Shown in pieces: positions 1-49,123 of a stretch of DNA of 64,000 bases. Numbering within the stretch: the first letter of the stretch is position 1; every line of letters begins with the position of its first letter. The stretch lies in contig OZ316899.1 of the NCBI GenBank assembly GCA_973895155.1, forward strand, positions 7,505,241-7,569,240. The letters run 5' to 3'. The stretch comes from Marsupella aquatica (lineage: Eukaryota; Plantae; Marchantiophyta). The position numbers and the translations under genes are program-made. The notes under the pieces were generated by a model. It worked only from the letters and a program-made list of their open reading frames with translations, searched no databases and had not been told where the DNA came from.

Positions 1-110
1 CATCCCATGCCGCTAAGCCGCGGAAACGGCCTCGCCGAGGACAAAACCTGCGGGAATCGGCTTGAGCAAGGGGGTTTTCTTGGGTTTGGGGAGCCATGGG
101 ACGCACCACA
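1..110 (+). repeat. 3' end of the 5' LTR of element A
   Basis: Matches 10191-10300 with about 6 mismatches; ends in CA; followed by PBS. Confidence 0.95.
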
Positions 111-114
111 TTTT

Positions 115-132
115 TGGCGCTAGATGGAGGGG
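115..132 (+). promoter_or_regulatory. Primer-binding site, probably tRNA-Asn
   Basis: TGGCGCTAGATGGAGGGG 4 nt after the LTR; identical at 14047-14064 and on the minus strand at 49102-49119. From memory it is one mismatch from the complement of the plant tRNA-Asn(GUU) 3' end. Confidence 0.8.
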
Positions 133-179
133 GCATTTCTTAAGCCGTGAGATATGAAGTTAGGAAGGAAGTGTGGGTA

Positions 180-3135
180 ATGACTGAACCTACGCCAAGA
201 GAGGAAAGAGTGATTCAACGGGAGAGAGCTCGTCTGCAGCAGCTCGCCGGGTGGCATGATACACAGCGACTGAGAGGGGCAAAAAGAGCTAGTAGCTCTG
301 TAACTGAAAGTGGCATCGAAGAAGACACACCAGAAGAAGGGTCGGTAAGGAGAAGTGAGTCTCCAACCAACATGGGGGAACCAGAGGCACGGCCAGACAA
401 GAGGCCAGGGACCAGACTGAGCCAACGGTCGCGTATTCATTACAAGGCCTTTCATGGAAGAGGAGATGAGGATCCGGACGAATGGTTGGATGACTTCGAA
501 GGAACCGCTGCAGCAAATGGAGAATCGGCCATCAAGATGCAAATTCTTCCCGTCCTGTTCAAGGGTGAGGCTAGGCCTTGGTACACAGCACTGGACGTGG
601 AAGATCAAGCCATCTGGAATACTTTCAGATCACTATTTGTCAAGGAGTTTCAACCCATTGGAACTTCAGAGTTAGCAGTGCTGAAGTTGGGACGACTTCG
701 GTTCAAGGAGAACAAATCCTTCAGGAAGTTCCTGCAACGCTTCAAAAGCTGGTAAGACGTACAAATACCAATGCATCTGAAGGTATGCAACTTCAATGGT
801 TAGTGAATGCTTTGCCACAGAAGATGAGTTTTGCAATTAGGAAGGAGAATCCAGAGACTTTAGCCGAGGCAATTAGAGATATTCAATTATACATTAATGC
901 AGATATCACAAGCCGGAAGAAACAGCTTAAGTCTGAGAGTTCCTCATCGGAGGAAGGATCAACCCAGAAGAAAAACGATAAGAAAAAGAAACATTCTAAG
1001 AAGTCAAGAAGTGATAACTCAAGCTCGGATAGTGGAGGTAGAAAGAGTGAGTCATCTTCTAGTTCTGAAGAAGAAAAAACTAGGAAAAGGAAGGGCAGAA
1101 GGAGGGGAAAGATGAAAGTCAAGCTAGAGGCTAAAACACCAGATAACATCATAGCCCTTACCAAGCAGCTTAAGGCTATAATAGCAGAGGTAAAACCGAA
1201 GAAGAAGGTAGTACAGGAGGATAGCTCTGTATGGTGTGCCTTATGTTATAAAACCGGACACCATAAGGATGTGTGTCCTAAACTTAATACTAGTCATGTT
1301 CGGCATGTGGCTGAGGTCAGACCATGTCAGGGAGAGTAGAGTACTTTTTAGGGGATGTCGTTGATAGTGTTTTCGGCATCAGTGAGACTGGAGCACGAGA
1401 CCTATCCAACAAACCTGCATCTCTCTGGTCAGGATTAAGGAACAATCTGGGAGAAATATATCCTCGGATTATTCAAAATCCGTCAGTACCTCCTAGGCCG
1501 AATGTGCAAAGATTTGCGGCATGCTATAATTGTGATCAACCTGGTCATTTTGCTAGAGAATGCCCAAATGCACGCAAACAAGGTGATGGACAACCAGCTC
1601 AACTATGTATGGGATGCCGACAGGAGGGCCACCTGCTAGGACAATGTCCTACGTGGTTGGCAGGCCTGGCCACAAATCATAAGCTCTTGCCAGTCAAGGT
1701 CTTGCCGCCAGGTACTATCCCCGAAGGAGTTCAAATCAACCACATCAAACTCGGATGGCAAACGGATGTCGAGGCAGAGTTCGGACCATCTGATGATGAG
1801 GCCGAGGCCCTATCAACCTTCTCAGAAGAGGATTTGGATCATGATTGCTACCGGGTCTCTGCTCAATCTACCAGAAGGAAGGAAAGGTGGGATGGGCTGG
1901 CCAAAAATAAAGGGAAGGATAAGGAAGAAATAATCGACTCTTCGTCAACATCAACAGAAGGGGAAGGAAAGGCGTCGGCAACACAGGTAAGCCATGAGCC
2001 CACCAGTGAGCCCAATCCTTCACAGGACAGCGACTTCAATCGAGATCACCCTAAGTTGTTCTACCCCTCTATTACGGCTAGTGTTAAGAAACAATTGCAA
2101 GAATTAGAAACCCAGGAGAATACCGAAGCCATAGTCAAGGATGTGAAACGAGCAAAAGCGTTGTTTGCTTCGGAGGATCCAATGGCTATGGAAACCAGCA
2201 TGGAAAAATAGGCCGAAGCCAAGATGAAGACAGCGCCAGAAGAGAAGCCGATAGTTCCCTATGACCTGGCTAAAGATGTGCTAGAATCTAGAGTCTTGGC
2301 AACCGTAGGTCAACTATTGAAAAATAGCCCGTACTTCCGGAAGCAGTTAAGGAAGGCAATTCTCGGCAAGCCGAGATTACCCAAGGTAGCAACCAAATCC
2401 GATGTGCTGATGATAGAAGAAGATCAAAGAGCCCCAGCATTATCATTAATGATTCAAGGAGAAATATTATTGCGAGTACCCATTGATGGAGGATCAGGGG
2501 TATGTATTATGATTGATTCAACAGCAAAAGGATGGGGTCTAACGTCGGAGATGACTGGAAGAGTGTTAAACATGGCCAATGGGTATCAAGTCATTCCCAC
2601 GGGAGTGTCAACCGGCATCAAAACGGAGATAGGAGGTATCTTCTTTAGCATTAACTATGTAGTAATGAAACCGGTAAACCCTACGTTGTTCCGGCTATTA
2701 ATTGGCAGGCCATGGCTGTACCTAGCCAAGGTAATAGAGGATTGGGGTAAGAAGGAGTTCACCTTTGGGGCCCCATCTATCACGGTATCCTGGGACACCA
2801 AGGATGACCGCAGGAAAAGCATCAGGGAGATAGATGGGTACGACAATGGACTGGAATCCGCCGATGAGGTACGTTGGCTAGAATGCCTCACTGACCTAAC
2901 CAAAGAAAGTGTCTTTGGACCAGAGGTACCCCGCAGCGGATTATGGCAAGAACCTATGGAAGGTGACTTGGAGGAAGGTGAAGAAAAGGTCGAGGACTGC
3001 TTTACCATAGAATTGACATTTTTAGCTTCAATCCCAGAGGAAGCACCAAGAGTGGACCAATTGGGTGAAACGGTTAAGTGGGGAGCTACAACAGGGACCG
3101 TGGATTTTCCTCAGGCGTTGTGGCAAAGCCGATAG
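180..3135 (+). pseudogene. gag: gag-protease of element A (two frameshifts, one stop)
   Basis: Colinear with the intact 997-aa ORF at 46061-49054; three CX2CX4HX4C knuckles; protease motif PIDGGSG...LLIGRPW. Confidence 0.92.
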
Positions 3136-5837
3136 GATCCACAACGCCGTCTATCCCTGACAACAAATTAAATACAAGGGGATCGTCTTACAAGCCAATC
3201 TCAAGGGCAGAGAAAATTGAGGCCCTACTAGAAGCCGGAAGAGCACGACGGCCTGACCCTCAGGAAGCAGGAATAGATGACATGCACGGGAAGAATCCAA
3301 AACCAAGTCAAGAAGGGAAGCCGACAACTAAATCAAAACCGAGCAGAACGGCAAGGGAACAGTCTGTTGAGAACCAAGGAGAAATTAAGTCAACCAACTT
3401 GGCTAGTACTGCCAAGATTCCAGTCTATGGAGGTATGAGACTGGAAAGGCTGGAAGCCGAGCTGGACCCGAATTTGAAGAAGCAGATTAATATGATCCAA
3501 GCACGGCAATACCGGAAGCTCGACTTAGGAGAAGGAAGGGAACTGAACTTAGGGAGGGACCTAACACCTGAACTCGAGAAGGAGATCAGTGAATTACTAA
3601 TTGAATTTCAGGATGTGTTCGCATGGAGTCACCAAGATCTGAAGGGAGTAGACCCAAAACTAGGAGAACACCGAATTGATCTCATGTTAGGGGCCAAATC
3701 ATTTCGACAACCGATTTGACGGATGAACCGTAATATTCCCTGATGGTAAAAACTGAAATCCACAAACTAGTAGAAGCTGGATTCATCACTCCAGTCCTAC
3801 ACTCAGACTGGGTGTCTCCAATTGTGATAGTTCCCAAGAAAGCTAGCAGTATGGCTAGATATCATGCAACCTAAGAACATAAAGGATGTGAGATCCTTCT
3901 TGGGGTGCATTGGCTATTATCGCCGGTTCATCAAGGACTTTGCCAAACTAGCTTTACCATTAACCAACATGCTCAAAGCAGGTGCAGACTTTGAACCCAC
4001 ACCAGAACGAGTAACAGCAGTAATAGAATTGAAGCAAATGTTAGTAGAGGCCCCAGTCATGATAGCACCAGACTGGAACAAGGATTTTCATGTCTTTGTA
4101 GATGTCTCAGGCTTTTGTATCGGCTCAGTACTAGGTCAGTTGGATGAGAAAGGAAGGGACAATCCCATATACTTTGCAAGCCGCCAACTTGCCGATGCCG
4201 AACGCAATTACTCCACCATAGAAAGAGAAGCATTAGGAGTCATTTATTCCTGTAAAAAGTTTAGGCATTATTTACTGGGGTACAAAGTAATCTTTCATAC
4301 CGATCATGAAAGTTTGAAGTACCTAGTAAATAAGCCGGACCTTACGGGCAGGGTAGCAAGATGGATTTTGCTATTACAGGAGTTTGACTACAAGCTAAAA
4401 ATCAAGCCAGGAAAGCTACACGCCAATGCCGACTTCTTTTCAAGGATCACAGGTGAACCTGCCACGGATTGCATCGATGATCGATTTCCCGACAAGGAGC
4501 TATTCGTTGTGGAAATAGCTGATACATGGTACCCTGAGATTTTACAATTTCTCAGCACATCCAGATTACAGCCAGGGCTAAACAGAGAGCAAGCCGCAGT
4601 CTTTTTGCGGAAGGTCAGACAGTATCAGTGCATTAAGGGCATCCTACACAGGTATGGAATTAGCGGCACAATTCAAAGGTGTTTGGAAAAAGGAGAGGTA
4701 AAACGAGTCCTACGGGTTATGCATGGGGAGGAAGCCGGAGGACATTTTGCTCCAGCAACCACGTCTAAAAAGATATTAAATGCCGGTTACTGGTGGCCCA
4801 CCTTGCACAAGGATGTCTACCAGTTTATCAAACAATGCGACCCTTGTCAGCGAGCGGGAGGACCAAGGGTGTCCACAAGACATCCACTACACCCTATTCT
4901 ACCTCTGACACCATTTGAGAAATGGGGTATTGACTACTTGGGACCTCTGAAACCATTGACCCATCCTCAAAAAAACAAGTACATAATCCTAGCCACGGAT
5001 TATGCAACTAAGTGGGTAGAGGCCAGGCCGACAACGAAGGATGATGCAATTACTACGGCTTGATTCATGTATGAGCAGATCTTCACCAGGTATGGCGCAC
5101 CCCTAGAATTAGTTAGTGATAGAGGAACCCATTTTCTGAATGATATAATTAGTCGTTTAAATGAGCAGTATTTAGTTAGACATAGGCCTACTACTCCCTA
5201 CCACCCAAAGGCAAATGGGTTGACAGAACGAGCAAACGGAATTATAGGAAAGATATTGAACAAAACCGTAGCTCAGAACAAACTCGACTGGGATGATAAA
5301 TTGTTTGCTTTTGTTTTTGCTTACAATTTAGCCTATAAATCCACTACCGGTCATACACCCTTTTTCTTAATCTTTGGATAGGAAGCCCTGGTACCCATGC
5401 AACTTGAGATTCCTACATTTCAAGTTACAATTGAGGAGAGAACCTCAGAGGAGGAAAGCCTAAAGGAGCGAGAATATAGGTTAGAAGCTTTAGAGGAGGC
5501 AAGAATGATTTCAGCCGAGAGAGTCGAATATAGATAGAATACCATGAAGCAGCAGTATGATAAAAGGTTGAAACTAGTTAGTATTCACACAGGAGATCTT
5601 GTATTACTTTATGACAGTAGGTATAGTAGGTTTTCGGGGAAACTTTACACTCGCTGGTTAGGACCTTTCAGGGTATCAATGAAGTTCTCTAATGGCTCTG
5701 TGCAATTGGCCAACATAACTGGAGAGGTGTACCTAGTTCGCATCCATTACGACCGCCTCAAGAAATACTATATGGACGAAGATGAAGTTGTTCACAAGGA
5801 CGCTTCACAATTAAGTGGGGAGCTATGTGATGCCTAG
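3102..5837 (+). pseudogene. pol: pol of element A: RT N-terminus, RT core deleted near 3845, RNase H, integrase
   Basis: DVFAWS...IVIVPKK joins directly to LAVWLDIMQPK; RNase H (FVDVSG, AERNYSTIEREAL); integrase (GGHF, CDPCQR, WGIDYLGP, VSDRGTHF, GLTER, WLGPF). Confidence 0.92.
5811..5825 (+). promoter_or_regulatory. Polypurine tract of element A, inside the last integrase codons
   Basis: TTAAGTGGGGAGCTA directly before TGTGATGCC, the LTR start defined by element F's TSD; similar to element C's PPT AAGTGGAGGGCTA-TGTG. Confidence 0.88.
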
Positions 5838-8800
5838 CCAGGAATCACTACGCCAGTTAGGTGGGGAAAACGGAGGTGTAACCTATAAACACATTAGTAT
5901 AGTAACAAAAACAAGGAAAATATAAACAATTAGGGTGACTATGGAACCCGGGGCGAGGCCGGAGGTAAAGACGCCGGGGGAGAGAACACGATTAGGGTTA
6001 GTGCGCGCTAAGCATCGGCGGCTAGGGGTAACCAACGGGAGGAAAGACCAGAGGAGGAGAGGGGTAAGGACCGCTTGCGAGGAATGGTGGCTCATTTGCA
6101 AGCACGAACTGGGCAGACAACTATGGAAGGCCAAATACTGTCAGCTACTTAGGCAAGCACTCTCGGCGGGAGCAGATACCAATGATCGAGTCAAGGAGGG
6201 TATGAGCAACGTCAATCAAGCGACACATTTTTGGGGATGCCTGTTCGAACGGGCAACTGAGTACATTAGGACTTACGAGAACAAAGAATCAGAGAGAGCA
6301 GCTCGAGAACGGCAGGAGCTCGCTCGACTGTGGGAGCTGTAGAAGTCTGCCTTTTAGGAGAACTCATCAAGGCCAAGTTCTTGTGGACTCCTACTACCAA
6401 TCAGCTCGATGACTTTCTGTTTTGCAAAGACAAAATCGTCGGCATTTGGGAAGCCATCAACCGCTGCAATGACACGCACTGGGAGTTGAAGGGTAGCACG
6501 GAGGGGTGGACAAAGGCAACTGTGCTAGGAGAAACATCCACGGCAGCCGAGATGAAGAGGAAAGGAAACAACAACAAAGAGGCCACCCCGGTAAAAAGAC
6601 CGAGGTCGGTGGCACCAAGGAAGCCAGCAGAGCAGCAGAACGGGAGGCAGGGAGAAGCCAAAGAGGAGGAGGTCGATCCCATCAATGCCATTCCAACAAA
6701 GGATGACACCTGGAAAGGCTGGGCGGCAACCCTACCAGAGGAAGTGCAATTACATTTTGCACGGGAGGAGGATGCATGCTTTATGGCCATGCAGACCAAG
6801 AAGTACCAGGGCTTCATGGCCGGATCCGGCTTGGAAGCCTTTGTAAGATTACCATGGCTGAAGCCAGAGGTGCCGGACTCAGACTTATTAGAATTCGTGG
6901 GATCTTGGGAACCCAAGACCAATTCCATGAGGGTGTATGGGAAGGATTTATATCTCACTCCCCGGGTGATTGCCGAGGTGTTTGGCTTGCCGATGGGTAA
7001 TAAGACCAAGGTTGATACCAGGAAGACCTTACTTGACAAGGAGTTCCGGTCGTTCCCAGGACCATCAACAAAGAATGGCTTCTTCCGGAACACCTGCACC
7101 AACCCGCACATCGGAGAGATGATCGATTTCTTGCGGGTGACCATGCATTGTAACTTGCCGAGGGCAGAGATCGGCAAGGCTTAGGTCTACCTGGCAGAAA
7201 GGCCAGACCCAAGCCGGGATTACAACGGGTACCTCCTCAATCAACTGAAGAAGATCTTGAAGGAGGAACAGCAGGCGATTGGCGTGGGAAGCGTGTCCCG
7301 GCTTGGCTATCACATGTTGTTGTTGTGCCGGTATGCCAGAAGTCAAATCTTTGCCCCAGTACTTCCCCTATCGGCAAGGGCACCGGAGGAAGTTCCGGAG
7401 CAGAGGCCAGCAACAGAAGAGCCCAACTAGCTTGCCAGTCCTACGATCGAGCAGGTGTTTCGGCCAAGGAAAGAAGACTTGCCGATGCAGCAATCAGGCA
7501 TGCAGAATCTGCTGAAATTGCTGGAGAAGGAGAGAACGGCACCGGCAACGGCAACGGCACCGGTACAGGACACTGCCCCAGAGGCCGGCCTAAGCTGACT
7601 TGGGAGGGAAAACCTCATTACCGGAGCCAACGAGAGAAGGAGGCCGGAACACAAGCCGGGAGTTCAAATGTATGTGGGAGCCTCAAGCCCCAAATTGGAG
7701 GTAGAGCAGCCTAAGGCTCCTTCCCGCGGAAAACAGAGGGAGAGGACAGCCTGGAAACTAGTGGAGGAACCAGAGCCCGTGATCTGTGAGGCCGTTTTCA
7801 CGGCAGGACCAGGGGAACAGAGGGGGAAGCCGGGAGTCCAAGCAGTGGAGGAGGCTGTGGAGGACTACAGCAATGATAACTCCGGCTATGGGTCGGATCA
7901 TCATGTTCCAGGAGTAAGGACCTGTGGCCAGTTTATCCCCACGCTTCCAAGAGTAGTTTGAGGGGACCCCACCTAGCAGAGTAGCCCCGAGTCTCCCCCA
8001 CCAGAGGTTGCTCCCCCGAGCTTTGACGGCATAAAGCAGACGGCACAAGAATTTCAGGAGCGACTTAGGGAGGAAGAGAAAGCAGCCCTGGCTAGGGAGA
8101 AAGATTTACCAGGAGGAGATTGGCCGGAGGACATCAGGCGGCTTGCCAAAAAAAGAAGCAACCCTCTCGCCACCGTAGAAGAAATCTGCAAGGCGGCTTG
8201 GGAACAGAGGCCGAGGTGGTTGATGCCGATGACTTCTACTTACTCCGCCTATGCTAAAGATAGAGCCATGGAGTACAGGGAGATGTGTGGGGACCTGGCA
8301 CTCAACATCTTTGGGGAGGAGTTGGAGCAGGGACCTTTTTTCCAGAGGGAGATGTTGGAGAAGCACCGATTAGAAGAAGCGGTGGCTTTGGAGAGAAGCA
8401 AGAAGGACAAGGTCATCCAGCGGCTTAGGGAGATGGAAACCGAGGTGGAAGACCTGCAGGCGGCCAAGAAAGCCCAAGATGAGCTGCGGATTAAGCGGCA
8501 TGAGCTAAACTTCATGCAAGGACAATTGGATGCCGCTCAGTCTGGCAATCAGATTATCAAAGATAAACTGACTTGGACCCAAGGAGAGTTGGTCGGCGCG
8601 GTCAAGGACAGGGAAAAGTGGAAGCAGGAGCTGAGGGACGTAGAGGAGGCCCACATAACCGCCAACAACCGGGCCATGGCGGAGACTCAGAGAAAGGAGA
8701 GGGCATTGAAAGGAGAGCTTGAGGATATCCGCGAAGCCCTTGAGCAGAAGGAGGCCGAGTTAGGGAAATCCTATCAAGGGATTATTGCGCTGCAGCAGGA

Positions 8801-10300
8801 ACTTGCATCCCTGACGGCCAGCTTCAAGGCCGACCTCCGTGAGAAGGACGACCAGCTTGACCAGACTTATGCCAAGATGAATAAGATGGAGTCTGAGGTC
8901 GTAGCAGAGCTTGACAAGGAGCTAAGAGCAACCCAGGAGGAGAGGGCTACCTTAAAATTGGAATTGGAGGAAGCCAAAAAGGAGCTGCAGGAGGGACGGA
9001 AGGACCCGGAGGAAGCCCAGGAGGAGTTGGAGGAAACCACCAGGAAGATGGAGAACTTACAGCGGCGGGCCGACAACCAAACGGAGCGGCTGAAGAAACA
9101 AGCCGCAGTATTTAAGTGCTTAGCTTCATCTGGTCCAATTCCAATTGTGGGAACTCCGTTACCAGGAGGGGTACTGGCCGAAGGACAAGCCGAGACACAC
9201 GCCCCGGTGCCGGAGGTAGGTAGCAAGGGGAAGGGACCAGCTACCAAAATAGGGAAGAAGAAGAAGCGGAAACCTTCTGGGTCTGGGAGTTATACGGCTT
9301 ACCAAGCCGTTGTGACCCAGGCGGTCAACCCGGCACCAAGCTCCGGCATGGTCACGGCAGTATATCCACCTGTTGAAGAAGGTGGGGATGGCAAGGCCGA
9401 GGCCGGGACAGCTATTGATGAAGCCGAGGTACCGGATCCTCCACTAGAACATGTCGGGAAGGCCGAAGCCGTATCGAAGGCCGTGACCGATGCTAAGGCC
9501 GAAGCCGAGGGTGGACCCAGTCAAGCCGATGAAGAGTTGACTCGGTCCAGGGCAGGTAATCTGTCAGAGGACGGACCGACGGCAGTGGGTGCGGGGGAAG
9601 CGTTGGGGGCGTCCATTGAGGATCCGCCACCAGTGTCGTGACGGTGCAAGGGTGCCATTCCTTTAAGGAAGGGCGGACGTGGAGGTAGGAGGCGTGAGTG
9701 GGCAGAGCGGGCTCAGATCTCCAAGTTTAGGATTAGGATCAAGACCAGGAGACGGCCCTGACACTTAGATTAGTGGGATGGCGGATCCACTGGTAGGAGC
9801 AACACTTGTGGTCCTGCCTTGCTGTACAGTTAGGTAGATTACAGGTAGGATAGATTAAGCTTACGCGACGAAGTTCTGGACAGATCCGCATTAACAGATC
9901 ATCTGCTATTTGTGTGTCGCATTAACTTGTGTGAAGAGTGCCCACATCAATGAAGGGAAGTAGCAAGGGAGTGAGAGTTGGATGTGTCAAGCTGAGAGAG
10001 GTCTTAGCGGCTTAACCAAGCCAATTGGGGATCATTTCGGCGGCGGAATCCAAACATACCTAATGGAAGACCAGGAGAGGAATACAAGGGAAGGCCTAGA
10101 ATAGGCCGGCTAAGTATCTCATGACCCGATGAAGGATCTGTCCAGTATATGTGTGTAAAATGTTAATCATAGTAGAAGGAGAGTTAGCAGCGTCCCATGC
10201 CGCTAAGCCGCGGAAACGGCCTCGTCGAGGACGAAACATGCGGGAATCAGCTTGAGCAAGGGGGTTTTCTTGGGTTTGGGGAGCCATGTGACGCACCACA
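5826..10300 (+). repeat. 3' LTR of element A (4475 bp, contains the accessory ORF)
   Basis: Starts TGTGATGC, ends GCACCACA; homologous end to end with the 4657-bp LTRs of element F. Confidence 0.9.
5941..9641 (+). pseudogene. LTR-encoded accessory protein, disrupted copy
   Basis: Fragments 5935-6342, 6330-7184, 7668-7961 and 8220-9641 align to the 1219-aa ORF at 50045-53704; stops are mostly CAG>TAG and CGA>TGA. Confidence 0.88.
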
Positions 10301-13144
10301 AGGGATTCATCCGATTACCATGGCGGTTAATCGAGATACCAGATGAGGATCTGTTGGACTTTGTGGGATGCTGGGAGGCTTCTTCCAACATGACGTTGCT
10401 GTATGGAAAGGTGTTTGAACGAACACCTACGCTTATCAAAGCTGTCTTCACTTTACCAACAGGAAGGAAGACCAAGGTGGAGCAGAGGAAGACGTTACCG
10501 GATGACCAGTTCAGGTCATTTACAGGGCCTTCCACTAAGAATGGGTTCTTCAGGAATCAATATACAAACTCGCATATAGGGCAGCTGATTGATTTCCTGA
10601 GAGTCACGTTGCATTGTACCTTGCCAAGAGCAAAACTCGGCAAAGCCCGGGTATTTTTGGTGGAGAATATCGATTCAAGCCAAGACTACAACGGCTATCT
10701 CTTAATGCAGTTGAAGAAGGCATTGAATGAAGAGAAGCAGAGTATTGGGGAAGGAGCGGTATCCAGACTAGGGTACCATCTGCAATTACTTTGCCAATAT
10801 GCAAGAAGCCAATCTTTTGCACTAGTGTTGCCTATATAGGAGCGGATGCCGATCATGCACCACTTGAGGAGATGGGGGAGGACAAGCAGCCCCTGAACAA
10901 GCGACGGCAAGAGAAGAGGTCGGCAATACAAGCAGTCCAGGGACGTGAGAATTCCCCTCCCAAGGAACCAGAGGTGGTAACATATGATGTGGTGAGAAAT
11001 CCACTACGACGGCCTACTCGTAATAACCCATATGCAGGCATTTACCTGGTAGAGAGGAAGATGACTGCCGAAGAAAGAAAGAAACGAGATGAGCAAATGG
11101 ATTTGGAGTCAGAAGATGGAAGCCGAGGCAGAAGTCCAAAGAGGCCAGTCCTTAGAGCTTCTAGCCCAGGCCGAAGTCTGGAGAGGCCAGTCCTTAGAGC
11201 TTCTAGTCAAGGCCAAAATCCGGAGAGGCCAGTCCTTAGAGCTTCTAGCCGGGCCCGAGTGGAGGAACCGGTGGAGGTAAATCAACCAGTGGCAGCCCAA
11301 CAATACTCAGAGGAGGAGATTGGGGGCTTTGCAGAAGAGGCCGACATGCTCGGTAGTTAGGTTAATGTGGATGACTATGACGATGATTTTGTCGATCATG
11401 GGGAGAGACCGGTGCCGGGAGTGAGAACGTTGGGAAGGTTTTGTAGAAGACTTCCCTCAGTCTTTTATGGCAAGCCAGAGGATCAAAAAACCCCAGAGTC
11501 TCCTCCACCGGACGTGACACCATTGGAATTTGACCGAATGAAGGAAGCCGAGGCAGGTCTAAAGGAGAAACGCGACAAGTGGAGGGCCCAAAATGACATG
11601 CAGGAACGGCAGCTACTAGACGGTGATTGATCGGAGAAAATAAGATGGCTTAGTGAGAAGCAGGCTGAACCTCTCACTGACTTTGATCAATTTCGGGCAG
11701 AAGCCTAGGAGAAACGGCCTTGTTGGCAGATGCCAGTATCACCTGGCAGGTCAAAATATGCCAGGGATCGGGCTAGGGAGTATGGAGACATGTGTGGACT
11801 GCTAGCCTTAGAAATCTTTGGCAATGAGTTAGAATCCGGACCATTTCTTAGAAAGGAAATGGCTGACCAAACAAGGTTGGAGGAGGCAATGACGTTGGAG
11901 CGATTAAAGAAAGAAGAGGTAATCGCTCGGCTTTGCTCCATGGAAGCTGAAGTTGCTAAGACGAAGTCTGATCAACCAACTCAGCAGGATCTCTTGGCTA
12001 AGCAGCAGGAATTGGAAGTGGCAAACAACCAATTGGAAAACTACCAATTGGATTACCAGCAGATCAAGGAAAAATTGACGAAGGTAGAGCTGGAGTTAGC
12101 CGATTCAAAAGATGAGGTACAGGGTCTAAATCGCCAAGTCGAGAGGCTTAGAAAGATGGCTAAGGAGCAGGCCACCCAGAGCGAGAAGGCCTTGGTAGAA
12201 GCCCAAAGGAAGTATGACAAGTTACTCGACCGGTTGGAGGCCATGCGTGAGAAGCATGAGGACGCCATTTGCACAGCGGCCAATGATCACCTAAGCCGAG
12301 TCCAACAGATATGCAAGGAGCTTTAGGAGGAGCTAATCAGCACAAAGCAGGCATGGACGGACGAGGTCACAAAGTTGGAAAGCATCAACGATTCCCAGAG
12401 AACCGCTTTGGATAAGCAGGAGTTTGAGATTGTGCAGATCTTAAACGAGGAGCTCAAGACGGCCAAAGAAGAGGCGCATCGGCTTAATGAGGAGGTTGAG
12501 GATTTATCCTAAGAGCTGGAGGAGGCCAAAGACAAGATGATCGGCTTGCAGAGGCTGCAGATAATCAAACGGAGAAGTTGTGAAAGTATGCCGAAGCCGG
12601 GCACGAATCACCAACTGGACGGGCTCCCGCTAGTGGCGTGGTCGCCGGGAATACTGAGGTGCCGAAGCCGACATCTATATTGTCAAGAGTAACTGGGGGT
12701 AAGGCAATATAGTTGGTTGCGGATCTGGCCAAAACATTCATGGGGCCAGCAAGTACTTCTGGGGTACCTCTCAAAGCCATGCCAGAAGAGGTTGAGAGTA
12801 TGGCTGCCCATATTTGTGGGACTGTTGCTACAAAGGCAGCCGTGGTAGAGATAAGTAATGCCGATGAACTTGGAGCTGCGGTAACAGGTTCAGACACTGG
12901 TACAGCCACCATGGACTACCAGAATGTGAAGCCGTGGAAGATCGATACAGAACGTATTGGAGAGCAGGCTTGGATTGAGGAAGTGAAGGCCAACGCTATC
13001 CAAGCCGTTTCCCAGGAGGATGCTGATGCCGTTGCTGATGCCGGGGCCGACAAACCAGAACCCAAAGTTAAAGGGATCAAGCCGGAGCCGATGGCAGGAG
13101 AAGGCGTAGAGTCAGAAGATTCGGGCTTACCCCCGGTCATCTGA
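10301..13144 (+). pseudogene. Family-B LTR accessory ORF, disrupted, N-terminus displaced by element A
   Basis: GFIRLPW...DLLDFVGCWE...GPSTKNGFFRN...SRLGYHL and the coiled coil are homologous to the family-A ORF. Confidence 0.85.
11121..11253 (+). repeat. 42-bp coding tandem repeat, 3 copies (RGRSPERPVLRASS)
   Basis: AGAGGCCAGTCCTTAGAGCTTCTAG core repeated with a 42-bp period. Confidence 0.92.
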
Positions 13145-14046
13145 CAATTAAGGAGGGCCAGTCATCGGTTGGAAGGAGGACGTGGCGGTAGGAGAAGGGC
13201 TTGGGCCAGAAGGGCGCGGCCGTTGTAGGATGGGACAGGGCGAGTAGCGCCTTGTCGGCTTAGGTAGTATTAGATGCTTGGTTCCCACAGGGTTCCGGGC
13301 TAGTCAAGTTTTTTAGGTGATAGTTTTTTTAGTTGGATTATTGCGGTGGAAGGCCGTGAGTTGTGGTTAGGATTTCCGCCTTTTCCCCTGAATGCGCTGC
13401 AAGGATAAAAACCTGGGCAGTGTGGCTCGAGGGGCTTTTTCTTAGTCAAGACTCTAGTGTAAAGTCAGTATTGCTAGCATACAGCTCTCGGCTAAATCTA
13501 GACCACGGATTATCAGTAAACCACAAATTTCCATTTCTGTGCAATTGTTTGAATTGAGTTGGCCTTGTTGCCTAGTTCGCAGATTCTTGCAATCATGGCG
13601 TTGTGTGTTGTGATACTTGTCGCTTGATCGATTTGAGTCAGTTAGAGCGATATTGTGAAGCTATACAATCGCATTGTCTTGATTGGAGACAGCCAAACCA
13701 AACTCTGAGAGAAAAGTGAGGATTGAGAGTGTTTTGTTGGTTAAAGTGTGGGTTGAGTCGGTCTGAGAAAAACCTTCAGCCGGCTTAAGAGATTAAGCCG
13801 TAGAGGTACATTCCGGGGGCGGATTACAAACATACCCAACGAAGTCAATTGAGAATTAGGTGTCACAGCAATGCACAATTAGCAAGCCCAGTGAAAGAAT
13901 TGGTCCAGCATAGTGTGGATTGAGAGTAGATCGTGTTTCGAAGCCGAATGGTAGCCAAACCACCATAAGCCGACCATAAGTAGGGGTTTATTGCTGGAGG
14001 CAGATGGTTCTTGGGGTTAGAGGTGTTGGGAAACGCGCCACATTTT

Positions 14047-14105: not shown

Positions 14106-17100
14106 ATGAATGAATTCACACCAAGGGAAGGTTGAGCAGCACAAAGGGAAGAATCGCGGTTGCAACAAATTCATAAGTGGAAGGAGTCACTGAGAGTGAA
14201 GGTTGTAACCGGCAACGGTGGTTCACAAAGTGCTTTAGAAGAGGAACTGGTGAGTGAAGAAGGGGATCTGTCGAGTAGCAAAGCGCCCAGTACCCAACCC
14301 AGTTCACCAGTGCAAGAAATGGGTGAGCCGGATCCACAATTTGGTGGGCGAGCAGCACCACGACTCAACCAGAGATCACGAATCCATTATAAGGCATTTC
14401 ATGGAAAGCACGAGGAGGATCCGGATGACTGGCTTGAGGAGTTTGATGGGACTGCAACTGCTAATGGAGAGTCTGCTATCAAGATGCAGATCTTACCCGG
14501 GTTGTTTAAGGGTGAGGCTCGACCATGGTACTCCAATTTGGAACTAGGGGAGCAGAATGAATGGGTCACCTTCAAGCAGTTGTTTGTCAAGGAATTCCGT
14601 CCCATTGGGACGTCTGAATTGGCAATGTTGAAGCTAGGACGGCTTCAATTCAAGGAGAACAAGTCTTTTTGGAAATTTTTGCAGCGATTCCACAAATTGG
14701 TGCGACGAACCAAGACCAATGCATCAGACGAAATGCAGTTGCAGTGGTTGGTTAATGCCCTACCGCAAAAGATGAGTTTCACAATTGGGAAGGGGAATCC
14801 GGAGTCTCTAGCCAAAGTAATCCGTGATATTCAGCTCTACATCAATGCAGATATCACGAGCAGGAAAAAACACTATAAATCTGAGGACTCATCTTCTGAC
14901 GAGGGATCAGGCAAGGAAAAGGCCAAGAAGAGGCGATCCAAGAAAGCCAAGGAGGAGAGTAGTAGCTCTGAGAGTGATACCAGTAAGAGTGAAACATCTT
15001 CCAGTTTAGGATGATGAAAAGAGTAAAAAAAAGAAAATCAAGAAGAAAGAGAAGGTTGCAGAAAAGGTGAAAACCAAGTTGGATCCTAAGAAAGCATCTT
15101 CGGATCAATTGACAGCGATCACAGAGCAGTTAAAAACGTTATTAGCCAACTCCCAGCCGAAGAAGAAGGAGGCAGCCGATGACACCTCAATATGGTGTGC
15201 TCACTGTTATACAACCGGACACCACAAGGATGTCTGTCCAAAGCGTGGTACAAAGCATGTTCGATTGATAACCGAGGGAACAATAGGAGAGTTGGAAGTG
15301 GAGTACATACTTGGAGATGCCGCAGATAGTGTGTTCGGCATCAGTGAGGCCGAAGCCCGAGATTTGGCTAACCGACCCACTTCTTTGTGGGGAGCATTGA
15401 GAACCAATGCAGGGGAGATGTATCCCCGCATCATTCAAAATCCAACTACACCTCCACAACCAAATGTTCATAGATTTGCAGCATGCTACAACTGCGGTCA
15501 ACCAAGTCACTTCTCGCGGGAGTGCACCAATGCAAGGAAGCAGGCGGATGGTCAGCCAGTCAATCTTTGTATGGGTTGCAAAGGAGAAGGGCATATACTT
15601 ACCCAATGCCCTATTTGGTTAGCCGGGATGGCTGCTGTACCTGTCAAACCCGCACCAAAGGTACTGTCAACAGGAACTATGGTAGGAGGAGCCCAGGTAA
15701 ATCATATTGACTTAGGATGGCATGAAGAAACACGAGGGGAATTTGCACCTTCTGACGATGAAGCAGACACCCTGTCCACTTATTCCGAAGAAGAGGTTGA
15801 TGCCAATTGTTACCGTGTGTCCACTAGATCCACTAGAAGGAAGCAAAGGTGGGAGGGGATTACCAAGAAAAAGAAGCCATGGAAAGAAGATGCGTCTGAT
15901 TCCACGTCTTCGGATTCTAACGGCAAGGCCCCTGTCACTGAGGACCCGCAAGTTGTACCTGGTGATCCCAGTCCTTCCCAGGATAGTGATTTTGATTGAA
16001 CGCATCCTAGTTTATTTTTTCCGGCAGTCACGGCTAGTGTGAAGGAGCAGTTGGTAGAGCTGGAAAAGGACGAGAATGAGGTTGCACTCCAGAAGGATAT
16101 TAAGAGAGCTGGCAAGCGGATGAAGGAGGAAATTGTTTCCGCTTCAATGAAAACAGTGGAGGACAGAAGTGTGTCACCACTGACTTCACCAAGCACACCT
16201 TTGAACCAAAGGAACCAGAATCATTACCAACTCAGGAGAATCCTCTTAGAGCAATTAAATTACCCCAGGAGGATGACACAGGGAAACAGCTGGTGCCATA
16301 CAACTTGGCAAAGGATGTGTTGGAATCACGCGTTACGGCTACTGTGGGTCAATTATTAAAAAATAGCCCGTATTTTCAGAAGCAGTTGAAAAAAGCCATT
16401 GCTGGGAAGCCGAGGCTTCCTAGAGTAGCAACTCGTACGGATGTCATGATGATTCAAGAGGATAGGGGAGCCCCTTGCTTACCAGTCATCATCAATAAAG
16501 AAAAGGTTATGCATGTACCAATCGATGGAGGGTCTGGGATATGCATACTCATTGATTCAACAGCGGCGGCTTGGGGATTCAAACCAGAATTGATAGGAAG
16601 GGTGCTGAATATGGCCAATGGCTATCAGGTAGTTCCCACTGGCATTCTTAAAGGAATACGCACAAAGATTGGTGGTATTGCATTCAGCATCAATTACATT
16701 GTGATGAAGCCGGTGAACCCTACCTCTTTTCGGGTGTTGATAGGACGACCCTGGTTGTACCTTGCAAAAGTTGTGGAAAATTGGGGCACAAAACAGTTTA
16801 CATTTGGAACTCCACCTATTACCATGTCATGGGAGGTAGAGGATGAAGCAGCCAGGTTGATTTGTGAAGCAGACGGTTATGATACTGGGTTAGAATCTGC
16901 TGATGATGTGCGTTGGCTGGAATGCTTATCAGGGTTATCAGAAGCGAGTGTGTTTGGACCTGACACACCTCCCAGCGGACTTTGGATGGGAGACACAGAT
17001 TCCATGCGGCCAATCGTTCTGGAAATTGAGGAAGAGCCCATTTCAATTCCACTAATGTTAGCAAGGAAGAGTTGGATGGAACCTATCATAGAGGAAGGCG

Positions 17101-17408
17101 ATTCAGAATACCAGGAAGTCCCGGCTGACAGCTACTTCGCAATTGAGGCCACCTTTTTGGAATCAATTATCATGGATAAAGAAACCAAATCACAGGTTCA
17201 AGTGGAGGAACTTGTTCTATCAAAGGATCCCAACGCCATGATGGTGGATTTTCATCAAGCGCTATGGCACAGTGGCCGGAGTCGGCAGCGCTGGTTGATG
17301 AAAAGGTCACTCCGATTACAAAGACTCACTCGGCAGACCAGGCAACTACATAGACAAATCAGGAGGCATTGCAGTCAATTTGAGAAGGGGTACCTGCTCT
17401 CACAATAA
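14106..17408 (+). pseudogene. gag: gag-protease of element B
   Basis: MNEFTPRE start homologous to A; three CCHC knuckles; PIDGGSG; stops and frameshifts. Confidence 0.9.
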
Positions 17409-20206
17409 ATAAGGTGAGTTTGGAGTCAATTGTTCCGAGCGGACTAAGGTGTCGGCCGGCTACTAAAAAATGAGGCTGAAGATGCTAAGGCTAAAAGGGA
17501 AGCCGAAGCCGAACTGATCTACTCCAGTGGAGATCAACACCATCATTGAAGAAGTTACTTCTTCCGGTGGGGAGTCAACAGCGGAGGTGATGGAAGCAAC
17601 CACGGAGCCCGAAATTCCAGTATATGGAGGAATGAGGTTGGACAGGTTGGAAGCAGACCTAGATCCAAATCTAAAGAAGCAAATCAACATGATTCAGTCA
17701 AAGCAATACAGGAAGCTTAAAGTGGGCGACGGTCGGGAGGTAAATCTGGGTAGGGATCTTGCTCCCAAAATCAAAAAGGAGATCAGTGAGTTACTAATGG
17801 AATACCAGGATGTTTTTGCTTGGAGTCACCTTGATTTACAAGGAGTGGACCCAAAATTGGGGAAGCATCGGATTGACCTTATGTTGGGAACCAAATCATT
17901 TCGGCAACCAATGAGGAGGATGAATCCAAAGTATTCATTGTTGGTAAAAGCAGAAATTAACAAGTTGGTAGAAGCCGGCTTCATTACACCAGTTCTCCAT
18001 TCGGACTGGGTGTCTCCTATCATCATTGTACCCAAGAAGGCATGACCGGATGGCAAGCCGAAGATAAGGGTTTGCCAGGATTATAGGAAGCTTAACGACG
18101 CCACTTTAAAGGATCACTTTCCTTTACCTTTTACTGATATGGTGTTAGACACTGTAGCCAGCCATGAGCTGTATTCTTTCATGGATGGCTACTCTGGATA
18201 TCAGAATAAGGCAGGAGGATCAGATCAAAACCGCCTTTATTACGGAGTGGGGAATTTATGTATTCAATCGGATGCCGTTTGGATTGTGTAATGCGCCAGC
18301 TATGTTCCAAAGGTTGATGGTTAACATATTTCACGACTACCTAAGGAAATTCCTGGAGATATTCATCGATGATTTTGCTGTGTTTGGGAAGGCGTCCAAA
18401 CATGCCAAGTACTTACGCAGAACCTTTGAAAGGTGCAGACAGGTGGGACTGAAGCTACATCCAGATAAATGTTTCTTTGGAGTAACTCAGGGGGTCCTGC
18501 TTGGTCACAAGGTGTCCAAGAAGGGTATCAAAATTGACAAGGGAAAATTAGCCGTGTGGCTCGATATCATGCAGCCCAAGAATATAAAAGATGTCAGATC
18601 TTTCTTGGGTTGTATTGGTTACTATCGAAGGTTTATCAAGGATTTTGCCAAGCTAGCACTTCCGTTAACCAACATGCTCAAAACAGGTTCAGATTTTGAA
18701 GCAACACCTGAACGGGTTACTGCGGTGGTACAGTTGAAGCAAAAGTTGGTTGAAGCACCCGTCATGATGGCGCCTGATTGGAATAAGGATTTTCATGTGT
18801 TTGTGGATGTTTCAGGGTTCTGCATCGGCTCCGTTCTAAGTCAGTTAGACGATAAGGGAAAAAACCACCCCATCTATTTTGCAAGCCGACAGTAGTTGTA
18901 GTTGTAGCCGAGCAGACTACACAACTATAGAGAGGGAGGCGCTGGGGTCATTTACTCATGTAAGAAGTTTTGACACTACTTATTAGGTTACCGGGTGATC
19001 TTTCATACAAATCATGAAAGTTTGAAGTACCTTGTAAACAAGCCGGATCTTACAGGACGAGTGGCCCGATGGATATTGCTATTGCAGGAATTCGATTATG
19101 AATTAAGGGTTAAACTGGGGAAGTTACATGCAAATGCAGATTTCTTCTCCAGGATACCCGGTGACCCGGCATCAGATTGCATTGACGACCGATTTCCGGA
19201 TGAGGAGTTATTTCAAGTCAAGGATTCGACTACTTGGTACTCAGAGATATTGGGATTTCTAAGTATAGCAAGGTTGAATAGGGCTTGGACCAGAGAACAA
19301 CAGGCGGTTTTCTTACGAAAGGCAGCTCGCTACCAGACCATTCATGGGGTGTTGCACAGGATGGGAGCATTTGGTAAGCTTCAGCGATGTTTGGAAAAAG
19401 ATGATGCCCGGAAAGCAATGGAAGCAATGCATGGAGAGGAGGCCGGAGGTCATTTTGCACCAGTAGTGACTACTCGCAAAATATTGGATGCCAGTTACTG
19501 GTGGCCAACTCTGCACAAGGATGTCCATAAATTCATTAGGGAATGTGATCCTTGCCAAAGGGCGGGGGGACCAAGGGCTGCCAGTAGACATCCACTGCAT
19601 CCAGTTTTACCCCTTACTGCATTTGAAAAGTGGGGGATCGATTACATTGGGCCTCTAAAGCCAAAAACTTATCCTCGGAGGAATAAGTACATCATCCTGG
19701 CCACTGATTATGCCACCAAATGGGTAGAGGCTAGGCCGACAATGAAGGATGATGCTGTTACAACTGCTCGATTTTTATACGAGCAGATTTTTACTCGGTA
19801 TGGGGCACCTCTAGAGCTGGTCAGTGATCGGGGGACTCATTTTTTGAATGATGTTGTCGGACGGCTTAATGAGCAATACTTGGTTCGGCATTGGCCTACA
19901 ACTCCCTACCATCCGAAGGCCAATGGACTTACCAAAAGAGCGAATGGAATCATTGGTAAGATACTAAATAAGACAGTATCAGAGCACAAGGATGATTGGG
20001 ATGATAAGCTGTACGCTGCTATTTTTGCTTATAATTTGGCCTACAAAACAACCACAGGACACACACCTTATTTCCTAACATTTGGGCAGGAGGTCTTGGT
20101 GCCAATAGAATTGGAAGTTCCCACATATCGTGTTACCATACGAGAACGTCTAAATGAGGCAGAGAGTAGGGAAGCAAGGTTGTACCAACTGGAGGGATTG
20201 GAGGAA
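17246..20206 (+). pseudogene. pol: pol of element B (RT, RNase H, C-terminally truncated integrase)
   Basis: FIDD catalytic motif, RNase H and integrase core. QLEGLEE is fused in frame to VEQRK of the LTR ORF at about 20207. Confidence 0.92.
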
Positions 20207-23200
20207 GTGGAGCAGAGGAAGATGTTGTCGGATGACCAGTTCAGGTCATTTCCAGGGCCTTCCACTAAGAATGGGTTCTTCAGGAATCAATGTACAAACT
20301 CGCATATAGGGCAGCTGATTGATTTCCTGAGCGTCACGTTGCATTGTACCTTGCCGAGAGCAGAAATCGGCAAAGCCCAAGTATTTTTGGTGGAGAATAT
20401 CGATTCAAGCCGAGACTACAATGGCTATCTCTTAATGCAGTTGAAGAAGGCATTGAATGAAGAGAAGTTGAGTATTGGGGAAGGAGCGGTATCCAGACTA
20501 GGGTACCATCTGCAATTACTTTGACAATATGCAAGAAGCCAGTTTTTTGCACCAGTGTTGCCTATACAGGAGCGGATGCCGATCACTACACCACTTGAGG
20601 AGATGGGGGAGGACGAGCAGTCCCTGAACAAGCGACGGCAAGAGAAGAAGTCGGCAATACAGGCAATCCAAGGATGGGAGAATTCCCCTCTCAAGGAACC
20701 AGAGGTGGTAACATATGATGTGGTGAGAAATCTGCTGCGACGGCCTACTCATAATAACCCATATGCAGGTATTCAACTGGTAGAGAGGAAGATGAATGCC
20801 GAAGAAAGAAAGAAATGAGATGAGCAAATGGATTCGAAGTCAAAAGGTGGAAGCCCAGGCTGAAGTCCGGAGAGGCCAGTCCTTAGAGCTTCTAGCCGAG
20901 GCTGAAGTCCACAGAGGCCAGTCCTTAGAGCTTCGAGCCGAGGCCGAAGTCCGGAGAGGCCAGTCCTTAGAGCTTCTAGCCCAGGCCGAAGTTTGGAGAG
21001 GCCAGTCCTTAGAGCTTCTAGCCGAGGCTGAAGTCCAGAGAGGCCAGTCCTTAGAGCTTCTAGCCGAGGCCAAAGTCCAGAGAGGCCAGTCCTTAGAGCT
21101 TCTAGCCGGGCCCGAGTGGAGGGACCGGTGGAGGTAAATCAACCAGTGGCAGCCCAACAATACTCAGAGGAGGAGATTGGGGGCTTTGCAGAAGAGGCCG
21201 GCATGCTCAGTAGTCAGGTTAATGTGGATGACTACGACGATGATTCTGTCGATCATGGGGAGAGACCGGTGCCGGGAGTGAGAACGTTGGGAAGGTTTTG
21301 TAGAAGACTTCCCTCAGTCTTTTATGGCAAGCCAGAGGATCAAAAAACCCCAGAGTCTCCTCCACCGGACGTGACACCATTGGAATTTGACCGAATGAAG
21401 GAAGCCGAGCCAGGTCTGAAGGAGAAACTCGACGAGTGGAGGGCCCGAAATGACATGCAGGAACGACAGCTACGAGGCGGTGATTGGCCGGAGGAAATAA
21501 GACGGCTTAGTGAGAAGCAGGTTGAACCTCTCACTGACTTTGATCAATTACGGGCAGAAGCCTGGGAGAAACGGCCTTGTTGGCAGATGCCAGTATCACC
21601 TGGCAAGTCAAAATATGCCAGGGATCGGGCTAGGGAGTATGGAGACATGTGTGGACTGCTAGCCTTAGAAATTTTCGGCAATGAGTTAGAATCCGGACCA
21701 TTTCTTAGAAAGGAAATGGCTCACCAAACAAGGTTGGAGGAGGCAATGACGTTGGAGCGATTAAAGAAAGAAGAGGTAATCGCTCGGCTTCGCTCCATGG
21801 AAGCCAAAGTTGCTAAGACAAAGTCTGATCAACCAACTTAGCAGGATCTCTTGGCTGAGCAACAGGAATTGGAAGTGGCGAACAACCAATTGGAAAACTA
21901 CCAGCAGATCAAGGAAAAATTGACGAAGGTAGAGCTGGAGTTAGCCGATTCAAAAGCAGAGGTACAGGGTCTAAATTGCCAAGTTGAGAGGCTCAGAAAG
22001 ATGGCTAAGGAGCAGGCCACCCAGAGCGAGAAGGCCTTGGTAGAAGCCCAAAGGAAGTATGACAAGTTACTCGACCGGTTGGAGGCCATGCGTGAGAAGC
22101 ATGAGGACGCCATTTGCACAGCGGCCAATGATCACCTAAGCCGAGTCCAACAGATACGCAAGGAGCTTCAGGAGGAGCTAATCAGGACAAAGCAGGCATG
22201 GATGGACGAGGTCATAAAGCTGGAAAGCATCAACGATTCCCAAAGAACCGCTTTGGATAAGTAGGAGTTTGAGATTGTGCAGATCTTAAACGAGGAGCTC
22301 AAGACGGCCAAAGAAGAGGCGCACCGGCTTAATGAGGAGGTTGAGGATTTATCCCAAGAGCTGGAGGAGGCCAAAGACAAGATGATCGGCTTGCAAAGGC
22401 ATGCAGATAATCAAACAGAGAAGTTGCAAAAGTATGCCGAAGCCAAGCACGAATCACCAACTGGACGGGCTCCCGCTAGTGGCGTGGTCGCCGGGAATAC
22501 TGAGGTGCCAAAGCCGACATCTATATTGTTAAGAGTAACTGGGGGTAAGGCAATACAGTTGGTTGCAGATCTGGCCAAAACATTCATGGGGCCAGTAGGT
22601 ACTTATGGGGTACCTCTCAAAGCCACGCCAGAAGAGGTTGAGAGTATGGCCGCCCACATTTGTGGGACTGTTGCTACAAAGGCAGCCGTGGTAGAGATAA
22701 GTAATGCCGATGAACTTGGAGCTGCGGTAACAGGTTCAGACACTGGTACAGCCACCATGGACTACCAGAATGTGAAGCCGTGGAAGATCAATACAGAACG
22801 TATTGGAGAGCAGGCTTGGATTGAGGAAGTGAAGGCCAACGCTATCCAAGCCGTTTCCCAAGAGGATGCCGATGCCGCTGCCGATGCCGGGGCCGACAAA
22901 CCAGAACCCAAAGTTAAAGGGATCAAGCCGGAGCCGATGGTAGGAGAAGGCGTAGAGTCAGAAGATTCGGGCTTACCCCCGATCATCTAACAATTAAGGA
23001 GGGCCAGTCATCGGTTGGAAGGAGGACGTGGCGGTAGGAGAAGGGCTTGGGCCAGAAGGGCGCGGCCGTTGTAGGATGGGATAGGGCAAGTAGCGCCCTG
23101 TCGGCTTAGGCAGTATTAGATGCTCGGTTCCCACAGGGTTTCGGGCTAGTCAAGTTTTTTAGGTGATAGTTTTTTTAGTTGGATTATTGCGGTGGAAGGC

Positions 23201-23888
23201 CGTGAGTTGTGGTTAGGATTTCCGCCTTTTCCCCTGAATGCGCTGCAAGGATAAAAACCTGGGCAGCGTGGCTCGGGGAGCTTTTTCTTAGTCAAGACTC
23301 TAGTGTAAAGTCAGTATTGCTAGCATACAGCTCTCGGCTAAATCTAGACCGCAGATTATCAGTAAACCACAAATTTCCATTTTTGTGCAATTGTTTGAAT
23401 TGAGTTGGCCTTGTTGCCTAGTTCGCAGATTCTTGCAATCATGGCGTTGTGTGTTGTGATACTTGTCACTTGATCAATTTGAGTCGGTTAGAGCGATATT
23501 GTGAAGCTATACGATCGCATTGTCTCGATTGGAGACTGCCAAACCAAACTCTGAGAGAAAAGTGAGGATTGAGAGTGTTTTGTTGGTTAAAGTGTGGGTT
23601 GAGTCGGTCTGAGAAAAACCTTTAGCCGGCTTAAGAGATTAAGCCGTAGAGGTACATTCTGGGGGCGGAATACAAACATACCCGACAAAGTCAATTGAGA
23701 ATTAGGTGTCACAGCAATGCACAATTAGCAAGCCCAGTGAAAGAATGGGTCCAGCATAGTGTGGATCGAGAGTAGATCGCATTTCCAAGCCAAATGGTAG
23801 CCAAACCACCATAAGCCGACCATAAGTAGGGGTTTATTGCCAGAGGCGGATGGTTCTTGGGGTTAGAGGTGTTGGGAAATGCGCCACA
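20207..23888 (+). repeat. 3' LTR of element B (5'-truncated); accessory ORF remnant 20207-22990
   Basis: Repeat of 10478-14042; ends GCGCCACA. Confidence 0.9.
20853..21110 (+). repeat. 42-bp tandem repeat, 6 copies
   Basis: Same unit as 11121-11253. Confidence 0.92.
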
Positions 23889-29579: not shown

Positions 29580-29845
29580 GACGCTGCTAGAAGCGTCGGG
29601 AGAATCTGGACGCTGCTAGAAGCGTCTTAAGTAAAACCAACGGACGCTGCTCACACTGCTCACAGCGTCAATACTAGGGTGGACGCTGCTCACAGCGTCG
29701 TGTGTTGAAGCTGACGCTTTCCACAGCGTCGGTCGAAATCCTCATAGAGTCTTGGTGGCGGTCGGGCACTGCCAAAAGCGTCATGAGGAGGTTGGACGCT
29801 TCCGCAGCGTCTTGAGTAAAAGAAACGGGCGCTGGTCACAGCGTC
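29580..29845. repeat. Array of ~8 palindromic GACGCT-N5/6-AGCGTC units with non-repeated spacers (duplicated at 34709-34974)
   Basis: Units start at 29580, 29609, 29643 (with a 9-bp internal duplication), 29682, 29713, 29765, 29795 and 29828. Confidence 0.9.
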
Positions 29846-49054: not shown

Positions 49055-49123
49055 TACCTACGCTTCCGTTCTAACTTCATATCTCACGGCTTAAGAAATG
49101 CCCCCTCCATCTAGCGCCAAAAA

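Follow-up and report, generated by a model that had tools for sequence, protein, structure and literature searches.

How plant long terminal repeat (LTR) retrotransposons with a single long reading frame keep Gag above Pol is only partly known. According to a 2016 review, the plant elements with separate frames on record as of 2003 used +1 arrangements only (PMC5009743), and splicing is a well-characterised plant strategy (PMC12786077, PMC5580714). In a 2019 survey, the prevailing organisations show breaks behind the protease only as a spacer or intron or as a stop codon, and overlapping frames only ahead of the protease, in Tcn1, Selgy and some SIRE elements (PMC6317226). The literature searched, with most subscription papers outside its scope, contained no description of a plant LTR retrotransposon with a -1 shift behind its protease. 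Here we describe a candidate for such a shift in two Ty3/gypsy elements, A and F, and its counterpart in a diverged relative, B. All three lie in a stretch of 64,000 nt from the liverwort Marsupella aquatica (contig OZ316899.1, positions 7,505,241 to 7,569,240), a cluster of LTR retrotransposons called the window below; positions are those within it.

The closest functional analogue of A and F would be the alpharetroviral Gag-PR/Gag-PR-Pol layout (PR, protease). In Rous sarcoma virus (RSV) and myeloblastosis-associated virus (MAV) the protease belongs to the Gag frame and is made in equal amount (PMC3185560), and a single -1 shift yields Pol (PMC5009743); the latter source places the alpharetroviral protease in pol, in conflict with the former. 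RSV uses a pseudoknot, whereas the locus described here is a plant LTR retrotransposon with the heptamer G_GAU_UUU and a simple predicted hairpin. A previous sequence-only reading of this DNA had compared the site with the pro-pol shift of beta- and deltaretroviruses such as mouse mammary tumour virus and human T-cell leukaemia virus. The comparison is right insofar as these viruses shift by -1 after the protease (PMC12789967), but they have a second shift between gag and pro, while here gag and protease share one frame (998 codons in F), as in alpharetroviruses. That G_GAU_UUU is a slippery site of plant viruses, also part of that reading, is supported: pea enation mosaic virus 2 (PEMV2, PEMV RNA2), an umbravirus, and the dianthoviruses combine it with a 3' stem-loop (PMC5009743). 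However, PEMV2 needs a stop codon close behind and the shared stop is here 67 nt away, and umbra- and dianthoviruses need a pairing about 4 kb away, whereas no conserved long-range partner emerged from our local scan.

Among plant elements, Ogre and Retand (Tat) also break their polyprotein after GAG-PROT, but in Ogre the break is a spacer or intron in 35% and a stop in 14%, and in Retand it is a single stop in 49% (PMC6317226). Neither is listed with overlapping frames, and both have an extra RNase H (RH) that the A/F/B element lacks. Tcn1 and Selgy of seed-free plants do have overlapping polyprotein frames, with GAG:o:PROT-RT-RH-INT in 60% and 65%, respectively (PMC6317226), but their break lies before the protease, and the table of that survey does not give its direction. 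For the Dictyostelium element Skipper, a break after the protease was not borne out by PMC5006619.

According to Pfam matches and translations, the domain order in A, F and B is gag, zinc knuckle, protease, reverse transcriptase (RT), RNase H and integrase (IN). This gag-PR-RT-RH-IN order between LTRs, together with a primer-binding site (PBS), identifies them as Ty3/gypsy elements; the PBS motif, which begins with TGGCGCTAGA, is common to all three and lies downstream of the 5' LTR. A and F are 90% identical at the nucleotide level, and B shares 68-75% with them. The three elements of the sequence-only reading all carry the heptamer, but judged by these identities they represent two lineages, with A and F counting as one.

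In A and F, the gag-protease frame (0 frame) and the frame leading into RT (-1 frame) overlap by about 95 nt. The -1 frame opens 24 nt upstream of the heptamer and the 0 frame ends at a common TAA downstream of it, A having an own earlier TAG at +31. The site is located about 135 codons past the GRPW motif of the protease and about 105 codons ahead of the conserved pre-RT block. In all three copies GGATTTT is the sole slippery heptamer within the 0/-1 overlap. Translation confirmed that the gag-pro frame reads GTG GAT TTT at all three sites and that the -1 frame encodes GFSSGVV (A), GFFAGVV (F) or GFSSSAM (B). The heptamer is thus in phase and of the X_XXY_YYZ type, in which G_GA is tolerated (PMC3542737, PMC5009743). 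At its three synonymous positions the copies A, F and B do not differ (P~0.06).

A heptamer, a spacer and a hairpin make up the usual -1 signal (PMC12789967, PMC3542737), with the stimulatory structure 5-8 nt downstream (PMC12789967). In A and F a predicted stem of 10 bp (GGCGTTGTGG/CCACAACGCC) with a 15-nt loop begins 5 nt 3' of the heptamer; it is perfect, as had been read from the sequence, and its predicted pair probabilities in a 200-nt context are 0.9-1.0. In B the structure is weak. Stability z-scores are -4.6 for A, -2.6 for F and 0.15 for B, and only 5 of 1134 sliding windows were equally stable. Compared with the other heptamers of the element (31 in A, 15 in F), this one has the strongest 3' hairpin. 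None of the 20 stem bases differs between A and F, as opposed to 42 of 153 in the surroundings (p=0.003 in a post hoc test, the stem having been chosen after inspection). The pattern of the three sites occurs three times in the window where 0.07 matches are expected, a circular count, since the pattern was written from these very sites. A conserved pseudoknot was not supported in a local scan of A, F and B from +47 to +120, in which loop partners of 5-7 bp were located at differing places, and Rfam gave no match over 3000-3300.

The pattern of selection changes frame at this site. Between A and F the ratio of nonsynonymous to synonymous differences (pN/pS) is 0.38 for the 0 frame in the 150 nt before the site (p=0.005) and 0.53 for the -1 frame over the stretch +48 to +279 (p=0.007), while the other frames are unbiased (0.83 and 1.18). 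Despite 24% divergence, the linker between protease and RT contains no stop in the -1 frame of A or F, compared to 3-6 in the other frames; a shuffled linker stays open with P=0.006-0.01, and the single A/F indel in it measures 9 nt. Further downstream, the pre-RT block and RT N-terminus have a ratio of substitution rates (dN/dS) of 0.07 between A and F, and the integrase has a pN/pS of 0.13 (p=5e-5). The site thus lies in an overlap followed by an open, coding -1 frame in A and F, though not in B as it stands. An open -1 frame leading into RT had been reported before; this is correct for the N-terminal part of RT, but the RT core is deleted in both copies. From these comparisons, the frame switch in A and F maps to the heptamer site. 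Because RT and integrase were under selection after A and F had separated, the offset was most likely present in Pol-making elements. It is very likely a fixed and functional feature of the A/F family, apparently inherited from a common ancestor and not a product of decay.

Programmed -1 ribosomal frameshifting is probably the mechanism behind this offset, being the explanation that best fits A and F. Gag-protease and RT-RNase H-integrase would be encoded in two overlapping frames, and ribosomes paused at the predicted hairpin would slip by -1 on G_GAU_UUU. Most ribosomes would terminate about 22 codons later and release Gag-PR, and a minority would continue to Gag-PR-RT-RH-IN. The offset, the motif, its place in the overlap and the selection on the two frames in A and F are observed, whereas the slip and how efficient it is, the part played by the hairpin and the use of this signal by the B family are inferred. 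Based on our observations, we also lean, with less assurance, towards a wider scenario, in which a bryophyte-type Ty3/gypsy lineage descending from single-frame ancestors gained a -1 shift of the plant-virus G_GAU_UUU type after its protease. It would thereby have reached an alpharetrovirus-like Gag-PR/Gag-PR-Pol scheme, a third independent plant route to throttling RT and integrase post-protease beside the intron of Ogre and the stop of Retand. If the signal works, it adds a mechanism to those known, with one heptamer serving both plant viruses and a host transposon. The 47-nt cassette is an easy test object. For annotation it would mean that pipelines calling such copies broken overlook the normal state of the family.

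Several observations weigh against this interpretation. The evidence for the offset comes from one lineage only, A/F, and all three copies are defective, none being autonomous. A is devoid of about 500 nt of the RT core (deletion near 3840). F has lost about 1.8 kb from RT into integrase, the deletion at ~45520 taking out the RT core, RNase H and the integrase N-terminus, and B is complete in outline from RT to integrase but carries stops and frameshifts. A net offset of -1 also arises commonly by decay, as in 13 of 37 unrelated Tat-like copies, and in A and F an acceptor-like splice site occupies the very spot of the heptamer. The programmed shift put forward by the sequence-only reading is partly supported, as the best explanation for A and F, but a splice-acceptor-like run overlaps the site there, and B does not confirm the offset.

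Element B adds less than its alignment promises. It aligns gap-free with A and F across the 47-nt block with the same 5/10/15/10 spacing, and its stem, previously described as a different one, is in fact in exact register and retains 8 of 10 pairs with two double changes. It is weak, however, the lower 6 bp being paired with P~0.6, and with two lineages only, the covariation is not significant (P=0.10 for the two double changes, 0.28 for the eight pairs). The net offset between gag-pro and RT in B is +1; where stops and one further indel had been noted earlier, the best path through the frames under a codon model is 0, -1, 0, +1, with two further shifts. This model favours -1 after the B stem by about 10 log units, then 0, then +1; it was trained on the coding stretches of the window itself, so that its 93 of 93 correct calls on training data are no independent benchmark. 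Moreover, B differs from A/F within the 47-nt block by changes that are synonymous for the 0 frame (pN/pS 0.26, p~0.001) and not for the -1 frame, and the 0-frame peptide VDFxQALWxS can explain most of the conservation in B, part of the heptamer included. Because this conserved tail peptide of Gag-PR explains much of the likeness, B was dropped as strong evidence. A conserved 0-frame tail is compatible with frameshifting, the tail being part of the major product. The human immunodeficiency virus offers a parallel, with a spacer peptide encoded over its frameshift hairpin.

In B the -1 frame has two stops in 74 codons, above what the decay of this element elsewhere predicts (P=0.01), the stop excess of the 0 frame is still larger (P=0.0005), and the B linker has no protein similarity to that of A and F (p 0.28 and 0.67). 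The B family may link protease and RT in another way. At 17350-17520 all three frames of the B linker are closed, with more stops than decay predicts, and a consensus donor AAG|GTGAGT is present at 17411; with the one nearby acceptor checked by hand it gave no in-frame join. The motif VDFxQALWxS itself is encoded at the end of Gag-PR at 3114-3132, 17258-17276 and 46100-46118. The changes that distinguish the two lineages here are synonymous and preserve it, in a linker that cannot otherwise be aligned. It may be a functional tail motif.

In our ranking of mechanisms, ribosomal frameshifting comes first and splicing next, the latter being unlikely but the most serious competitor. As in Ogre, which splices between GAG-PROT and RT (PMC6317226), partial removal of an intron ending at CAG|G just after the heptamer would fuse the protease and pol frames; the T run would then be a polypyrimidine tract, and the hairpin would damp the use of the acceptor. 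Indeed, a run Y6-N-CAG|G extends from +3 to +13, and there are just three such sites in the 9.8 kb of A and four in the 8.6 kb of F. A and F also have in common a phase-compatible donor, AAG|GTGACT, 139 nt upstream, although with several phase-1 GT sites available a single donor is weak evidence. On the other hand, B, which keeps the heptamer, has CAA|G in place of the acceptor and GC in place of the donor. Introns of plants are U-rich, and the candidate introns contain 20-25% U, compared to 21% in the element body. Furthermore, the Ogre intron is a spacer between open reading frames (ORFs), and those of A and F overlap. Two other candidates were rejected, namely an intron starting past the stem (no donor common to A and F, and a coding linker) and a shifty stop at the TAA common to both (A and F have different bases ahead of AAT).

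Distinctly less probable than splicing is that a one-base loss became fixed in a non-autonomous lineage, or that the copies decayed independently, in which case the heptamer would simply be codons for V-D-F and the hairpin would have another role or none. The defects of all three copies and the conserved 0-frame peptide agree with this. Metagenome loci, the best 80 of 146 and from distant families, provided a control: 37 of them belong to a Tat-like family and show both protease and RT, with offsets of 0 in 21 loci, -1 in 13 and +1 in three. The apparent -1 excess was rejected as a signal, the deletions being scattered without a shared alignment column. A -1 offset alone thus means little; it is the shared position together with the selection that counts. 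In contrast to the control family, A and F have their offset in common, and once the two had parted, their RT and integrase were under strong selection. Synonymous divergence is of similar size before and after the site (dS 0.32, 0.49 and 0.46), without sign of a recent swap. In the Tat-like copies (37 loci, L004-L080) an RNase H-like domain separates protease from RT, and in the decayed ones net one-base losses strongly exceed gains (13 vs 3).

Also in favour of a one-base loss or decay, the nearest relative in which both domains are visible, P0002, has a continuous frame. In all four protein-search matches, P0002 included, a single frame leads from protease to RT; of ten relatives looked up, three are named from the liverwort Calypogeia fissa. 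Nine further loci with both motifs in view have offset 0 (six), +1 (two) or -1 (one), the last with stops in both frames. GGATTTT was absent from the coding strand of all nine loci checked for it, five of which are among the nine scored for offset. In a protease tree of 29 rows, chosen from top matches and single-ORF relatives and rooted at the midpoint only, the clade of A, F and B (100/100) sits within a weakly supported group (81/91) that includes P0002 and liverwort proteins, and single-ORF elements occupy several other branches. A gain of the break in the A/F lineage, possibly with B, is the simplest reading, and the break looks derived. Further family copies were found neither in viral contigs nor in prokaryote genome contigs, where nothing relevant and three bacterial matches, about chance level, turned up. 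Protein searches with the -1 frame of F gave no matches, a weak negative, as P0002 should have matched the first.

There is only a slim chance that Pol is made separately from an in-frame AUG at +180, via a subgenomic RNA or by re-initiation past the gag-pro stop. The -1 frame has this ATG in both A and F, and foamy viruses make their pro-pol through splicing (PMC3185560). However, the codons from +48 to +180, ahead of the ATG, are constrained in the -1 frame (pN/pS 0.45, p=0.018), and B has no ATG there. Pol made without Gag would also lose its usual route of entry into the particle. Least probable of all is a slip of the polymerase in transcribing the run of T (T4 in A and B, T6 in F, adjoining the hairpin), yielding a minority of frame-restored RNAs. 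The runs are short and not conserved in length, and reverse transcription of such an RNA would leave continuous copies, of which there is none among the three.

As to classification, the PR-RT and RH-IN intervals in the translation of B contain no additional RNase H, and in those pol and extra ORFs that were scanned Pfam did not match a second one. The A/F/B family thus lacks the additional RNase H by which the Tat clade (TatI-III, Ogre, Retand) is recognised. Athila is recognised by the placement of RT, RH and IN in a tree with reference Athila elements and by a PBS that is mostly for tRNA-Asp; the absent extra RNase H and the presence of an extra ORF at the 3' side are compatible with membership. 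Phygy and Selgy are defined as short elements whose polyprotein fills the internal region, without extra ORF (PMC6317226), and the long 3' ORF on the same strand excludes the family from them. The coordinates of the features are compiled in the table.

Table. Coordinates of elements A, F and B and of the features around the protease-RT junction
Element	Feature	Position in the window	Strand	Remark
A	Ty3/gypsy element	about 1-10300	+	
A	Protease-containing end of gag-pro	2212-3135	+	gag upstream broken by a stop and an indel
A	-1 frame: linker of about 105 codons, then RT N-terminus	3078-3719	+	
A	Overlap of 0 and -1 frames	3078-3171	+	own TAG 3133-3135; TAA 3169-3171 common to F
A	Heptamer G_GAU_UUU	3102-3108	+	in phase with the gag-pro frame
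A	Splice-acceptor-like run Y6-N-CAG|G	3105-3115	+	overlaps heptamer and spacer; in F too, not in B
A	Predicted hairpin	arms 3114-3123 and 3139-3148	+	15-nt loop, 5-nt spacer
A	RT end, RNase H, N-terminal half of integrase	3831-5063	+	
F	Ty3/gypsy element	40076-49530	-	
F	Primer-binding site	49114-49123 (approximate)	-	begins TGGCGCTAGA; internal to the 5' LTR end by a few bases
F	Unbroken gag-zinc knuckle-protease ORF	46061-49057	-	998 codons; closes 67 nt beyond the heptamer
F	-1 frame: linker and RT N-terminus	45453-46154	-	up to the deletion at ~45520
F	Heptamer	46124-46130	-	
F	Predicted hairpin	46084-46118	-	all 20 stem bases as in A
B	Ty3/gypsy element	gag from 14136	+	
B	Protease-containing ORF, 0 frame	16104-17408	+	extends 160 nt past the heptamer
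B	Heptamer	17246-17252	+	
B	Predicted in-register hairpin	17258-17292	+	retains 8 of 10 pairs; pairing predicted for the lower 6 bp
B	RT-RNase H-integrase	17518-20139	+	

The extra ORF lies 3' of the integrase on the same strand. It is unbroken in the copy at 50045-53719 (minus strand, 1224 codons), with homologues at 6270-9641 (plus) and 40998-44672 (minus); B retains only a remnant near 20183-20550. The ORF contains a coiled-coil stretch, with a weak ATG16 match below the cut-off, and matches no Pfam family. A tandem duplication of 4657 nt is present at 40077-44733 and 49124-53780 (identity 99.76%), and F and a truncated upstream copy have one LTR in common. The near-identical LTRs of F (405/407) may stem from this duplication instead of a fresh insertion. 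On both sides of B there is a 3.6-kb repeat (10454-14042 and 20183-23888) with 42-nt tandem arrays inside it at 11079-11300 and 20810-21157. Because this flanking repeat includes remnants of the extra ORF, the LTR boundary of B is unclear. Elsewhere in the window, identical direct repeats of 1388 nt (28627-30014 and 33756-35143) flank a minus-strand ORF of 653 codons (30581-32542) without Pfam match; together they form an LTR element, very young and of uncertain kind, inserted into a Copia element. In one Copia piece of the window, the protease and the start of the integrase share one frame.

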